The translations under genes and the position numbers were made by a program. The notes beneath the pieces are model-generated. The model ran no database searches. It was not told the DNA's origin and saw only the letters and a program-made list of their open reading frames with translations. DNA of 64,000 nt. Origin: Aggregatilineales bacterium (GTDB taxonomy: Bacteria > Chloroflexota > Anaerolineae > Aggregatilineales > Phototrophicaceae). Positions within the stretch are counted from its first letter, which is position 1. Every line of letters starts with the position of its first letter. The stretch covers positions 167,962 to 231,961 of the forward strand of contig JAVJSU010000038.1 in assembly GCA_040219275.1 (NCBI GenBank). The letters are read 5' to 3'. This document shows positions 5,991 through 41,031 of the stretch, in pieces.

Positions 5991-7257
5991 TCATATATTA
6001 GATACAAGACCAAATTGGGTAGACTAAGTCTGTAACCAATCATGTCAGATACAACCGTTTGCGTCTGATAGCTGAGACTATGCCGCAAAGATAGTTGACT
6101 GATGTGAGTAGGACAGACACCAAGCCTGAACCGTATCTAGTCGCTGAGACGACGTATCCTATGAGGCAAGGCTGGGTCTGCCCACTGGGTTTTTATTATA
6201 TAGTCAATTTAAACCAAAGGCAGAAACCCATGATAAGCCATTATGTTGGTATCGACATTGCACTCAATTCCGCGACTGTGGCATGGCAAGAGTCTGACAA
6301 GTCCTCCGTGACCGTGATCGAGATTGCCCAAAGCCGTGACGGGTATCAACACTTGCTACACAACTTGAAACAACTCGCTCCCGTCAGTCAGATACAAATT
6401 GTCATGGAAGCCACCAGCACTTATTGGATGGACTTAGCATATGTGCTGTATGATGCCGGATTTCAAGTCAGTGTCGTCAATCCCTCGCAACCCAAATACT
6501 TTGCACAAATGCGTTTACAACGTGCCAAAACAGATGCGATTGATGCGGTCATGCTCATGGACTATGCTCAATCCCAACAGCCTGATCTCTGGACACCGCC
6601 TCCTGCCATTTGTGAGCAATTACGTCAATATCTGACCTATCGTCAGCAACTGATTGAAATGCAAACGCAAGTTCGCAATCAACATCATGCCCTTAAACAA
6701 AATCCGAATGCCGATACCGGAATTCTCGCTCGCATGACACACCGATTATCTGCACTCTCCGCCGAAATCAAACAACTCGCAAAAGATATTGACCACCTTT
6801 TACACACCGATCATGACTGGGCAGTTGCTGTGGACTGCCTCATGTCCATCCCCGGCATTAGCACCATCTCAACGGCATGGTTACTGGTGGCAACACACGG
6901 CTTTGAACGCTGTGATACCCCTGAACAAGCCGTTGCTTTTGCTGGACTTGCGCCACATCCACAACAGTCGGGTAGCTCCAAAAATAGTTATCGTTCGATT
7001 GGAGGTAGTGGGCATCAAGCCTTACGCAATACTCTGTATATGGCTTCTGCTCCCGCCTCGCGCTTCAATCCCATTCTCAAGCCCTATTATGAAAAATTGC
7101 TTGCACGCGGTAAAGCCAAGAAAGTTGCACGCTGTGCTGTCGCCCGCAAACTGATTCATATTGCCTGGGCTTGTGTCACTAAACAACGCCTCTTTGACCC
7201 TAATTTTCAGCAACAACTCCAAGTCGCTTGATTTTATCCTTGACTTTCAATACAGTA
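5991..7257 (+). mobile_element. IS110-family insertion sequence, about 1.27 kb. The ends are approximate, with no obvious terminal inverted repeats, as is typical of this family.
   Basis: A single DEDD-type transposase ORF with a roughly 235-bp 5' noncoding arm. The element splits one copy of the dispersed repeat: repeat-left | IS | tctttgcgttatgcttttatt. Confidence 0.7.
6230..7231 (+). CDS. IS110-family transposase (DEDD RuvC-like N-terminal domain + C-terminal Tnp domain). The start is chosen at MISHYVGIDIA.
   Basis: N-terminal YVGIDIALNS (first catalytic Asp), MEATSTYW. The C-terminal domain has PGISTISTAWLL...FAGLAPHPQQSGSS and ARCAVARKLI, the signature of IS110/IS1111 transposases. The ORF-track start at 6095 is probably too early. 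Confidence 0.85.
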   Translation: MISHYVGIDIALNSATVAWQESDKSSVTVIEIAQSRDGYQHLLHNLKQLAPVSQIQIVMEATSTYWMDLAYVLYDAGFQVSVVNPSQPKYFAQMRLQRAKTDAIDAVMLMDYAQSQQPDLWTPPPAICEQLRQYLTYRQQLIEMQTQVRNQHHALKQNPNADTGILARMTHRLSALSAEIKQLAKDIDHLLHTDHDWAVAVDCLMSIPGISTISTAWLLVATHGFERCDTPEQAVAFAGLAPHPQQSGSSKNSYRSIGGSGHQALRNTLYMASAPASRFNPILKPYYEKLLARGKAKKVARCAVARKLIHIAWACVTKQRLFDPNFQQQLQVA

Positions 7258-18757: not shown

Positions 18758-18934
18758 TTATTCGCCCCAATCTTCTTCTACTTCCGGCGCAAGTTCAACT
18801 TGCAACGGGTTCAGGCTAATGATTTCCAGTTCCGTGCCACAATCCGGGCAGGAGATAATTTCGTTTTGCATCGCGTCCGCCGGAATATTTACGTCGGCGG
18901 CACATTCAGGACATTCAACAGTCGGGTTACTCAT
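18758..18934 (-). CDS. lysW: Amino-group carrier protein LysW, 58 aa. It is absent from the ORF track because it is shorter than 60 aa.
   Basis: Hand translation of the minus strand gives MSNPTVECPECAADVNIPADAMQNEIISCPDCGTELEIISLNPLQVELAPEVEEDWGE. It has a zinc ribbon (CPEC...CPDC), the diagnostic C-terminal EDWGE, and a Shine-Dalgarno aggaaag 7 nt upstream. Confidence 0.85.
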   Translation of the reverse strand: MSNPTVECPECAADVNIPADAMQNEIISCPDCGTELEIISLNPLQVELAPEVEEDWGE

Positions 18935-18993
18935 GTGTTACTTTCCTCGTTCGTCAGATTAAATTGATAAATTTCTTGTTCATCGAATCGGCA

Positions 18994-19027
18994 CAAAAAA
19001 ACCGCCATCCGATTTCCAGATGGCGGC
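18994..19027 (-). terminator. Intrinsic terminator / attenuator hairpin (ccgccatc-N9-gatggcgg + T7) about 70 nt upstream of the lysW start on the minus strand.
   Basis: Minus-strand RNA cctgccgccatctggaaatcggatggcggttttttt, located 34 nt after the stop of the Lys-rich leader ORF. Confidence 0.7.
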
Positions 19028-19060
19028 AGGTGTTTCGACTTGGTGTACAAGCAAACGCCA

Positions 19061-19132
19061 CTATCCAGAACGCGAGTTCGGGCAGGTCTTCTTGCACTTC
19101 TTTTTGCTGTCAGTGGTGTTCAGGTCGTACAT
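19061..19132 (-). CDS. Candidate lysine-codon leader peptide 1 (23 aa, MYDLNTTDSKKKCKKTCPNSRSG).
   Basis: ATG with a Shine-Dalgarno (aAGGAtagacca ATG). Five Lys codons among six consecutive positions. Followed by the terminator hairpin. Position and orientation are as expected for a Lys-responsive attenuator of the lys operon. Confidence 0.55.
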   Translation of the reverse strand: MYDLNTTDSKKKCKKTCPNSRSG

Positions 19133-19166
19133 TGGTCTATCCTTAGTAAAAATATCGTCACGCAGA

Positions 19167-19196
19167 AATAAAAAAACCTACCGTGTAGGCAGGTTC
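19167..19196 (-). terminator. Second hairpin + T-run on the minus strand (aacctgcctacacggtaggtt + T7). It sits between the two leader mini-ORFs.
   Basis: An 8-bp stem (one G-U pair), a 5-nt loop, then tttttttattt. Confidence 0.6.
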
Positions 19197-19240
19197 GCTT
19201 TGCAAGATCAGTCTTGTTCAGGAAGCAAAAAAGCCCACGA

Positions 19241-19291
19241 GTTAGGTGGTTTTCGTCTTCTTCGCCTTCTTGCTGAACAAATTGATATTCA
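19241..19291 (-). CDS. Candidate lysine-codon leader peptide 2 (16 aa, MNINLFSKKAKKTKTT).
   Basis: Five Lys codons in 7 positions and a T6 run 10 nt after the stop. There is no strong Shine-Dalgarno, so confidence is lower than for leader 1. Confidence 0.4.
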
Positions 19292-19598
19292 TGGTTTGGT
19301 TTATTTCCAGCGCGTTTTTTGACATGAGCAATATGTTAACAGGCATGACCGCACAACGCAATAGGGCGGGATACACAAACTTTATTAGACGATATGTACA
19401 AACGCAGAGAATTAGCTCATCAGCCAGTCAGCTGGTCAATAAAGCACACATCTATTTGCTCTACGCTAAACAACACATCATCACAAGGGAAAAAGCTAGT
19501 CGCTAAAAGCCAACAGCCAATAGCTCTCTCCCACCTCGTCAATCCCAACGACTGCGGTTATAATGCACGGCGTTTCCAACAAACCAACGGGATGGCGG

Positions 19599-20246
19599 AT
19601 GTTCATAACATTTGAAGGCTTGGACGGTAGCGGCAAGACCACACAAATCAAAGAAGCCACCGCCAAATTACGCGACGCGGGCGCAAAAATCTTGCTCACC
19701 CGTGAACCGGGCGGGACGTATATCGGCGATCAAACCCGCGAGATTCTATTTGATAAGAAAGAAGACGCGACCCAGCACCCGATGAACCCGCGCACGGAGT
19801 TACTGCTCTTCTGTGCTTCCCGCGCACAATTGGTTGCGGAGGTCATCCGCCCGCATCTTGCCAGTGGGGGCATCGTCATCAGTGACCGCTTCTTCGATTC
19901 AACCTATGCCTATCAGGGCTACGGTCACGGACTCGACCTGAAAGCCTTACGCGCTATCGTGGATTTTGCGACTGCCGGACTCAAGCCGGATTTGACGATC
20001 TATTTTGATATCACGCCAGAAGAAGCCCTGCGCCGTCGTCAACGGGCTTCGTTATTCGGCGAGGAATTTAACCGATTGGACGCGATGGAGGTGGAATTCC
20101 GTCAGCGCGTCTACAAGGGCTACCAGAAGCTCATGAAAAAAGACCCCGCCCGTTGGGTAACCATTGATGCGTCACAATCCATCGGGGATGTCCAATCAGA
20201 CCTGATGAAACTCTTAAACAAACACCTGAAGTTACGCGCCCGTTAG
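19599..20246 (+). CDS. tmk: Thymidylate kinase. The start is chosen at MFITFEG.
   Basis: P-loop FEGLDGSGKTTQ, a TREPGGT lid, and DRF. A TATAAT box lies about 35 nt upstream. Confidence 0.9.
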   Translation: MFITFEGLDGSGKTTQIKEATAKLRDAGAKILLTREPGGTYIGDQTREILFDKKEDATQHPMNPRTELLLFCASRAQLVAEVIRPHLASGGIVISDRFFDSTYAYQGYGHGLDLKALRAIVDFATAGLKPDLTIYFDITPEEALRRRQRASLFGEEFNRLDAMEVEFRQRVYKGYQKLMKKDPARWVTIDASQSIGDVQSDLMKLLNKHLKLRAR

Positions 20247-40514: not shown

Positions 40515-40880
40515 ATGCGTAAATTAAACCGATTTGCCATTAAGCATATTCTACGCACCACACGCAATTTTGAGGGAAAGAACCTCAGCGGGTTAGATTT
40601 AGCAGGGTTTAATTTCTCTCATGCCAGGCTGTGGTATGCCGATCTTTCCGGCGCAAATCTAGCAGGTGTGAACTTTGCCCATGCCGATTTAACGGGCGCA
40701 AATTTGACCTGCACCAATCTAGCAGGCGCAAATCTGAGCGCCGCACAGCTTGATGAAACCATCTTCGATGAGACTAACCTGACGGGTGTTTATCTTGGGG
40801 AGTTCGTCTTTGATACAGATATTGACGAACGTAACTCACAATTCAACAATCCTAAACCCCAATATGCCCAAACAGCTTAA
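40515..40880 (+). CDS. Pentapeptide-repeat protein.
   Basis: Tandem A(D/N)LxG pentapeptides (DLAGFNFSHARLWYADLSGANLAGVNFAHADLTGANLTCTNLAGANLSAAQL). Confidence 0.85.
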   Translation: MRKLNRFAIKHILRTTRNFEGKNLSGLDLAGFNFSHARLWYADLSGANLAGVNFAHADLTGANLTCTNLAGANLSAAQLDETIFDETNLTGVYLGEFVFDTDIDERNSQFNNPKPQYAQTA

Positions 40881-40992
40881 TCACGGGAAACGCCTGCATC
40901 ATCATGAGCACAATCATCCCCCCGATGTAATAACGTTATTGTTGTAGGCGGTTTCTCATCCGGCACATTCTTAGGAGGAATGACCGGAAATA

Positions 40993-41031
40993 AAAAGAGG
41001 TGATCTTTGAGCATAGATCGCCTCTTTTTTG
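40993..41031 (+). terminator. Intrinsic terminator (agaggtgatc...gatcgcctc + T6) downstream of the pentapeptide gene.
   Basis: An imperfect 9-10-bp stem followed by tttttt. Confidence 0.45.

Follow-up and report, generated by a model that had tools for sequence, protein, structure and literature searches.

Tandem lysine-codon leader units upstream of lysW in an Anaerolineae genome: probable transcription attenuators in series

How might a bacterium of the largely uncultured class Anaerolineae adjust the transcription of its lysine biosynthetic operon to its lysine supply? The question is raised by a short region of contig JAVJSU010000038.1 from an Aggregatilineales bacterium, of which one stretch of 64,000 nucleotides (nt), called the window below, was analysed. 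Upstream of lysW, the first gene of the operon, the minus strand carries two mini open reading frames (ORFs) packed with lysine codons, each followed by a hairpin and a run of U, so that two similar units (A and B) of only about 120 nt each stand one behind the other. We consider that both units are ribosome-mediated, lysine-responsive transcription attenuators acting in series, with a probability of about 0.8. Both would read the availability of lysyl-tRNA via the Lys codons of a translated mini-ORF, the operon being on when charged tRNA-Lys is low. Together with their relatives, they very probably constitute a new family of lysine leader-peptide attenuators that is widespread in Anaerolineae and tandem in the subclade of the window. 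The reading frames and their surroundings are the following.

19242-19292, minus strand: leader ORF A, MNINLFSKKAKKTKTT followed by UAA (stop included), of type A, with the consensus ...SKKAKKT... in 78 sequences
19251-19271, minus strand: Lys-codon block of unit A, AAG AAG GCG AAG AAG ACG AAA, part of region 1
19140-19144, minus strand: Shine-Dalgarno-like AAGGA, ending 7 nt before the start codon of ORF B
19061-19132, minus strand: leader ORF B, MYDLNTTDSKKKCKKTCPNSRSG followed by UAG, of type B; most relatives end in ...SG-stop
19088-19105, minus strand: Lys-codon block of unit B, AAA AAG AAG UGC AAG AAG

Each ORF has five Lys within seven codons, and the combination of a Lys-rich mini-ORF with a terminator occurs at only these two places in the window. 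The region is also rich in terminator-like sites (6, vs 1.3 +/- 1.4 in dinucleotide shuffles). The initial annotation, which was drawn from the letters of the DNA, had pointed to both reading frames. It gave ORF B exactly (19132-19061), whereas ORF A, rightly described as a Lys-packed mini-ORF, was set at 19291-19241 and thus off by one from the correct 19292-19242. The Shine-Dalgarno motif that it reported for ORF B is present, as AAGGA at 19144-19140, with a spacing of 7 nt and not 8. A hairpin and T-run do follow each mini-ORF where it had located them; the 70 nt that it counted from the second hairpin to lysW are in fact 66 nt from the end of the stem, or 60 nt from the end of the U-run, to the lysW ATG.

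Conservation was assessed in relatives collected through LysX. The 80 closest loci listed have LysX proteins of 68-82% identity, and lysW stands directly before lysX in 80/80. All come from metagenome-assembled genomes (MAGs), almost every one of which bears an Anaerolineae label or another Chloroflexota name; the MAGs of the family belong to Anaerolineaceae, Phototrophicaceae and Aggregatilineales. Sufficient upstream sequence was present at 77 related loci, which makes 78 sequences with the window. A Lys-rich mini-ORF followed by a hairpin and U-run precedes lysW at 77/77 of these related loci. Under a strict criterion (a mini-ORF that starts with ATG, is 8-35 codons long, has 4 or more Lys among 7 codons and lies at most 450 nt upstream of lysW) counted over 77 sequences, i.e., 76 related loci and the window, such an ORF was found in 67/77 on the lysW strand vs 0/77 on the opposite strand, dinucleotide shuffles giving a mean of 0.2 and a maximum of 2. 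Lysine is the sole enriched residue, with 67 loci vs at most 5 for any other amino acid.

Two types of unit can be distinguished. All 78 sequences carry type A, whose peptide has KKAKK or KKVKK at its core and whose terminator follows the pattern ACCCGCCC...GGCGGGU. In type B the arrangement of Lys residues varies, the peptide mostly ends in ...SG-stop, and a long GCCGCCGUCCAGA...UCUGGACGGCGG terminator comes next. The succession of A and then B, with B between terminator A and lysW, is found in 31/78 sequences (the window and 30 relatives) and is a conserved trait of a subclade; the Phototrophicaceae and Aggregatilineales MAGs among the relatives have type A only.

The signal is also visible at the level of codons. 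An in-frame ATG without an intervening stop exists for 77/77 type A units, vs 7/77 and 4/77 in the other two frames, and for 24/24 type B units, the other frames of both types giving 0-7 units. Lysine accounts for 24% of in-frame residues in type A and 21% in type B, vs 4-5% out of frame. The middle codon of KKxKK is GCG in 21 units, GCC in 17, GCA in 10, GCT in 6 and GTG in 8, besides others, so that all four Ala codons and Val are used. AAA and AAG swap at the Lys positions of the leaders, and from one genome to another type B leaders differ in the count and spacing of their Lys codons without losing the enrichment. Neither the length nor the sequence of the N-terminal parts is constant, an argument against a function of the peptide itself; the conserved parts are the Lys block and the segments involved in RNA pairing. 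For unit A, these segments are as follows.

19223-19238, minus strand: region 2 of unit A, GUGGGCUUUUUUGCUU, starting 6 nt past the stop codon and able to pair with the Lys block (1:2) or with region 3
19185-19200, minus strand: region 3 of unit A, AAGCGAACCUGCCUAC, made of the A-rich lead-in, 5' arm and loop of terminator A; partner of region 2
19170-19196, minus strand: terminator A, GAACCUGCC-UACAC-GGUAGGUUU and a U-run, with the hairpin at 19196-19174 and Us to 19170

In the minimum-free-energy fold of the untranslated RNA, the Lys block (region 1) pairs with the U-rich region 2. The equivalents of terminator A in relatives differ by compensatory changes, and so do the two strands of the alternative helix. 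Indeed, the type A segment after the stop codon is GUGGGC in the window and GUAUGGGC, GUCCGGGC or GUUAGGGC in relatives, and its partner in the top and loop of the terminator is GCCUAC in the window and GCCCAUAC, GCCCGGAC or GCCUUAAC in relatives, complementary to the segment after the stop. In an alignment of 74 sequences this antiterminator A helix is 88.6% paired, vs 20-46% when the partner columns are slid, with compensatory changes at 6/8 pairs. Double-change cells number 78 vs 27 +/- 6 in shuffles, and 0/500 shuffles reach 78. RNAalifold, run on the type A alignment, predicted antiterminator A as its only helix and thereby found it independently. Because a terminator loop otherwise has no reason to covary with an upstream segment, these changes argue that the alternative pairing is used. 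In 57/75 type A units, 6-7 nt separate the stop codon from the invariant GGG of region 2.

The position of the ribosome was then modelled by folding each leader with a footprint of 28 nt forced single-stranded. For unit A of the window, the modelled probability of the terminator is 0.95 in the free RNA and 0.82-0.96 with the ribosomal A site on codons 1-7; it falls to 0.01-0.11 on codons 8-14 (KKAKKTK) and returns to 0.95 on codons 15-17. As the modelled terminator is lost only at codons 8-14, the Lys codons sit exactly where a stalled ribosome would flip the switch. Across the type A family, the minimum of terminator probability falls at the Lys codons in the same model, and 47/78 units switch under a strict criterion. 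Unit A may thus be described as a classical four-region attenuator. When it is untranslated, region 1 with its Lys codons would pair with region 2, and terminator A (3:4) would form. A ribosome stalled at KKAKK(T)K would free region 2, which would pair with the lead-in, 5' arm and loop (2:3) and allow read-through. A ribosome that has reached the stop codon, 6 nt before region 2, would cover region 2 and let the terminator form.

Unit B would work like unit A with a single difference, its antiterminator strand lying over the stop codon and resembling the 3' arm of terminator B. Its segments are the following.

19056-19070, minus strand: region 2 of unit B, UUCUGGAUAGUGGCG, overlapping the UAG stop, mimicking the 3' arm of terminator B and pairing with region 3
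18995-19028, minus strand: region 3 and terminator B, (U)GCCGCCAUCUGG-AAA-UCGGAUGGCGGU and U7, with the stem at 19027-19001 and the U-run to 18995

Region 2 of unit B also has alternative partners, either CCCGAAC (19082-19076) or the start of the ORF (19131-19111). Over 30 sequences, pairing in terminator B reaches 93.6%, and 8/11 of its pairs show compensatory changes. In antiterminator B, UCUGGAUAGU, which lies over the stop codon, pairs with GCCGUCCAGA of the terminator 5' arm, at 86% vs 31-39% for slid partners. A local 1:2 hairpin of type B, in which UCUGG pairs with CCGGA (from the Pro-Asp/Glu codons that immediately follow the last Lys), is 79% paired and could act as an anti-antiterminator. 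The geometry of type B is well defined: the Lys codons lie only 7-20 codons before the stop and never in the last 6, masking of the antiterminator starting at codon -6, and region 2 begins 5 nt before the stop codon in 18/23 units, the last Lys codon being always at least 16 nt before region 2. The RNA of unit B was folded truncated before the 3' arm of the terminator, in place of equilibrium folding. In this kinetic test, the modelled probability that upstream sequence captures the 5' arm of the window terminator is 0.35 for free RNA; it is about 0.9 when a ribosome occupies the Lys codons and 0.33 when the ribosome stands on the stop. A ribosome stalled on the Lys codons, 16 nt or more upstream, would leave UUCUGGAUAGUGGCG available to sequester the 5' arm of the terminator ahead of synthesis of the 3' arm, and one that has run on to the stop codon would mask this antiterminator strand.

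Placed in series, units A and B would multiply termination when lysine is plentiful. Their relationship was approached with a covariance model built on type A only, which has no other match in the window beyond the leader region. This model detects type B units full-length and collinear at 20-31 bits, in the window (18996-19120, minus strand) and in 12 relatives, and this weak detection suggests that B may be an old diverged duplicate of A. Whether the tandem is a two-stage attenuator for one signal that arose by an old duplication and then diverged, A as a classical unit terminating by default, whose Lys codons would supply the anti-antiterminator strand, and B as a unit similar to that of Thermus, is a proposal to which we give even odds.

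Some leaders depart from the common pattern in individual relatives, which are designated by their locus numbers. In L002, an in-frame insertion of about 90 nt extends leader ORF B to 53 codons. In L013, the frame of ORF B is broken by a 1-nt indel relative to the near-identical L003, which may be an assembly error. Palindromes similar to repetitive extragenic palindromic (REP) elements, GTAGGGGC...GCCCCTAC, are inserted beside leader terminators in L013, L015, L016, L027 and L028, with two copies in L015. Finally, in L075 terminator B is separated from lysW by an insert (about -280 to -1) that measures about 280 nt and consists of two direct repeats of about 100 nt, and the attenuators of this locus are consequently unusually far from the gene.

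The operon behind the leaders was identified by its proteins, and its beginning is as follows.

18758-18934, minus strand: lysW, first gene of the operon, with an NCBIfam LysW score of 62.7 bits vs a cut-off of 53.2 and matches to LysW chains in PDB; start ATG at 18934
18941-18948, minus strand: Shine-Dalgarno motif of lysW, GAGGAAAG, read from 18948 to 18941

The gene order is lysW-lysX-lysY(argC)-lysZ-lysJ-lysK-hcs-hacA, extending on the minus strand to about 11029. This is a complete alpha-aminoadipate lysine cluster, in which every gene that has an NCBIfam equivalog model scores above the cut-off (e.g., LysX 318 bits, LysK 408 bits and HCS 432 bits), in agreement with the lysine biosynthetic operon that had been expected there. 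The host had likewise been taken for a Chloroflexota-like genome, and it does belong to Chloroflexota, class Anaerolineae, its closest LysX (82% identical) being from an Anaerolineaceae MAG. Both leader units are held, on the minus strand, by the interval between lysW and the divergent tmk. As tmk is upstream of the leader in the window only and not at the lysW loci of relatives, the leader goes with lysW and not with the neighbouring gene. In this interval, a promoter-like site of tmk is seen at 19536-19564 on the plus strand, and an inverted repeat, GGGAGAGAGCUA...UAGCUUUUUCCC (minus strand), occupies 19480-19535 between that site and leader A. Elsewhere in the window, a candidate histidine leader at 40864-41026 on the plus strand, with a His-rich mini-ORF MPKQLNHGKRLHHHEHNHPPDVITLLL, a strong hairpin and a U-run, was rejected as an ordinary gene terminator; the last codons of a pentapeptide-repeat gene (40515-40880) fall inside it, and the gene that follows is one for a PD40 beta-propeller protein.

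Several points weigh against lysine-responsive attenuation in this region. The evidence is wholly computational and the relatives are all metagenome-assembled genomes. The shuffle controls ignore phylogenetic relatedness, and the statistics based on them are inflated because the sequences are related. No recognisable Shine-Dalgarno motif precedes ORF A, and across the family a motif of this kind is found at the proximal ATG of 25/77 type A units (32%) and 13/24 type B units (54%), vs 12% at other nearby ATGs. The start codons and the translation of the ORFs accordingly remain putative. The Lys codons of the leaders are 83% AAG, vs 50% in the adjacent lysX genes, a bias that could reflect a constraint on RNA pairing instead of decoding; pairing with the U-rich strand, avoidance of slippage on A-runs or tRNA choice may be involved. 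At equilibrium folding, 22/78 type A units have no switch. On the MAFFT alignment, the 5' arm of the type A stop-codon hairpin shifts register between subfamilies, and the score of this hairpin is uninformative. For unit B, equilibrium folding gives no switch at all: the terminator stays at about 0.95 in all ribosome states, in nearly all type B units, because a terminator of 12-15 bp dominates. The predicted switch of unit B is a kinetic argument drawn from the truncated-RNA model only. Double changes are seen at 3/10 pairs of antiterminator B, the other changes being mostly one-sided or wobble-preserving; this scarcity is attributed to the near invariance of region 2 in type B. Moreover, a consensus scan for a minus-strand sigma-70-like promoter of the lys operon gave none, and candidates chosen by eye are weak.

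Lysine-responsive attenuation is favoured by the set of features found together. The region shows the ORF, the Lys codons, the terminator, an antiterminator that excludes it and the geometry of stalling and stop codon expected of a leader-peptide attenuator. From these we infer that the leader ORFs are translated, that stalling depends on lysine and that transcription stops at terminators A and B. The initial annotation had proposed an architecture of ribosome-mediated attenuation, to be checked by comparing orthologous regions upstream of lysW and by folding the RNA. Its proposal is supported by conservation, by the mask model and, for unit A, by covariation, and those of its checks that lend themselves to computation all came out in its favour. 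Lys-codon mini-ORFs are conserved upstream of orthologous lysW genes, the tandem recurring in 30 relatives, and mutually exclusive terminator and antiterminator pairings exist, with covariation and constrained folds for unit A and the truncated fold only for unit B.

Other explanations share part of this evidence. Ribosomes are known to be slowed by successive Lys codons and by Lys-Lys-Pro, and the mini-ORFs might be translated and control the terminators in response to something other than lysyl-tRNA, such as effects of nascent poly-lysine, a dependence on EF-P or the capacity for translation in general. Transcription of the operon would in that case be coupled to the overall state of translation. 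The KKPD or KKPE found in most type B peptides would fit this explanation, as would the 83% AAG bias, which sensing of the amino acid does not by itself explain, and the RNA switch would work for any cause of pausing at those codons. We nevertheless hold it to be unlikely: the leader precedes a lysine biosynthesis operon in 77/77 loci, only Lys is enriched (in 67 loci vs at most 5 for other residues), type A is devoid of a KKP motif, and the independent leaders of Thermaceae, also before lysine genes, share nothing but Lys codons with those of the window. Translation itself is set aside by the proposal that the purine-rich AAGAAGGCNAAGAAG block acts together with the hairpins as a switch made of RNA only, or as a site bound by a lysine-responsive RNA-binding protein, the frames being incidental. 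The Lys block pairs with the U-rich region 2, so that its nucleotides would be expected to be conserved even if untranslated; most type A units lack a Shine-Dalgarno motif, and the AAG bias could serve pairing with CUU/UUU. An element made of RNA only is however quite improbable given that start, frame and stop are kept at every locus, the other frames being closed or without ATG, that the middle codon shows third-position wobble, that the distance from the stop codon to region 2 is kept at 6-7 nt, that the number and spacing of Lys in type B change freely while the enrichment stays, and that the mask model puts the switch window exactly on the Lys codons.

One or both units may also be seen as an independent small gene, for a Lys-rich micro-protein or a small RNA (sRNA), with constitutive terminators and a merely fortuitous proximity to lysW. 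Each unit is indeed a complete ORF with a terminator, and attenuated leader transcripts do act in trans in other bacteria, rnTrpL being a precedent (PMC12612679). This remains very improbable, as the peptide N-termini vary and conservation is limited to the Lys block and the segments that pair in the RNA, as a covarying alternative helix has no role in a plain terminator, and as the unit always accompanies lysW whatever gene lies upstream. Furthermore, if the terminator that lies 60 nt ahead of the first gene were constitutive, an essential operon would be silenced unless a promoter stood between them, and none was seen there. Lysine genes are also commonly regulated through premature termination by the lysine riboswitch (L-box) and by T-boxes, and such an L-box or tRNA-Lys T-box leader could conceivably have been mistaken for leader peptides. 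The output would be the same as that proposed for the window leaders, premature termination before lysine genes, the difference being that an L-box (RF00168) or a tandem T-box binds its ligand or tRNA directly and without translation. We regard this possibility as extremely improbable, given the length of only about 120 nt and the lack of an Rfam match. Lysine riboswitch (RF00168) and T-box (RF00230) gave no cmscan match at 18800-19700 even at E up to 10. This Rfam 15 scan of 18800-19700, with permissive filters, returned four chance-level matches (a microRNA, a small nucleolar RNA, an sRNA and a long non-coding RNA), and at gathering scores there was no Rfam match in the whole window or in 19 related loci.

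The closest known counterpart of the leaders considered here, as translated lysine-responsive attenuators, is found in Thermus. A leader-peptide attenuator of the alpha-aminoadipate lysine cluster of Thermus thermophilus was reportedly described by Tsubouchi et al. in the Journal of Biological Chemistry in 2005, and to our knowledge lysine-specific leader-peptide attenuation has been described only for Thermus. This precedent, already invoked by the initial annotation, is real and could be seen in retrieved sequence. On a Thermus contig reached via the LysW of PDB (L081), the leader MLARAKKLGRRGVG (6259-6345) and its terminator precede hcs, and the same arrangement exists on a Meiothermus contig (L082) with the leader MPLRAKKPGAVG (6462-6560). 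As in the window, a short ORF with Lys codons is followed by an intrinsic terminator before alpha-aminoadipate genes. The Thermus leader resembles unit B in its three-region design and in an antiterminator strand that extends over the 3' end of the ORF, stop codon included. In the mask model it is antiterminated when free and when the ribosome has not gone beyond the Lys codons, it is terminated as soon as the ribosome has passed them, and the Meiothermus leader behaves in the same way.

The differences are nonetheless numerous. The leaders of Thermus and Meiothermus are single, stand before hcs and have two Lys codons, AAA AAA, whereas those of the window are tandem, stand before lysW and have five Lys each, mostly AAG. 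The free Thermus RNA, which has no region 1, is antiterminated, whereas unit A terminates by default in the fold. No sequence similarity links the Thermus leader to the window, the type A model scoring 13.7 bits (E = 0.13) on its opposite strand, and Thermus belongs to a different phylum, Deinococcota. By homology and by position, the window leaders are not members of the RAKK-type lysine leader of Thermaceae. No family of Rfam 15 covers the Thermus leader in a scan of L081, and no Lys leader was evident at a Gemmatimonadota lysW locus (L083).

The general design of unit A is that of the classical four-region attenuators, such as the trp, his, thr, leu, ilv and pheA leaders of Proteobacteria. 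Similarly to the trp and his type, the regulatory codons are in or next to region 1, pairings 1:2, 2:3 and 3:4 are available, termination is the default and the stop codon is so placed that a terminating ribosome would mask region 2. In contrast to the Proteobacterial leaders, the purine strand of the 1:2 helix, whose partner is U-rich, consists of the Lys codons, the antiterminator reaches into the terminator loop, the element has no Rfam family and it occurs in Chloroflexota. We know of no lysine-sensing leader of the four-region kind in Proteobacteria.

As to the tandem arrangement, units in series that respond to the same signal are known among T-boxes and glycine riboswitches. In Salmonella, the mgtM and mgtP ORFs respond to different signals, ATP and proline-charged tRNA, respectively, whereas both ORFs of the window are Lys-rich and each has its own canonical U-run terminator. 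As in the window, mgtM and mgtP are two short ORFs in series within a single leader, that of mgtCBR, each thought to control the choice between stem-loops and transcription into the coding region (PMC3641672). The novelty claimed for the tandem by the initial annotation therefore holds in part: a full-text literature search found no description of lysW leaders or of Chloroflexi lysine leaders, but the concept of a tandem attenuator is already known from mgtCBR.

The advance made here lies in distribution and architecture, the mechanism itself being textbook. A second family of lysine leaders would be added, unrelated to that of Thermus, much larger (78 examples), backed by covariation of its switch and absent from Rfam. 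If this is true, two phyla with the alpha-aminoadipate pathway evolved lysine leader peptides independently of each other. The window would be a natural example of one signal read by two successive attenuators, in which the units would multiply termination and sharpen the response to lysine. Since attenuation needs a lead ribosome that keeps pace with the RNA polymerase, the leaders would be indirect evidence of coupling, and their presence across Anaerolineae would imply tight coupling of transcription and translation in a largely uncultured class. The leaders would also provide a sequence signature for locating lysine regulons in uncultured Chloroflexota.

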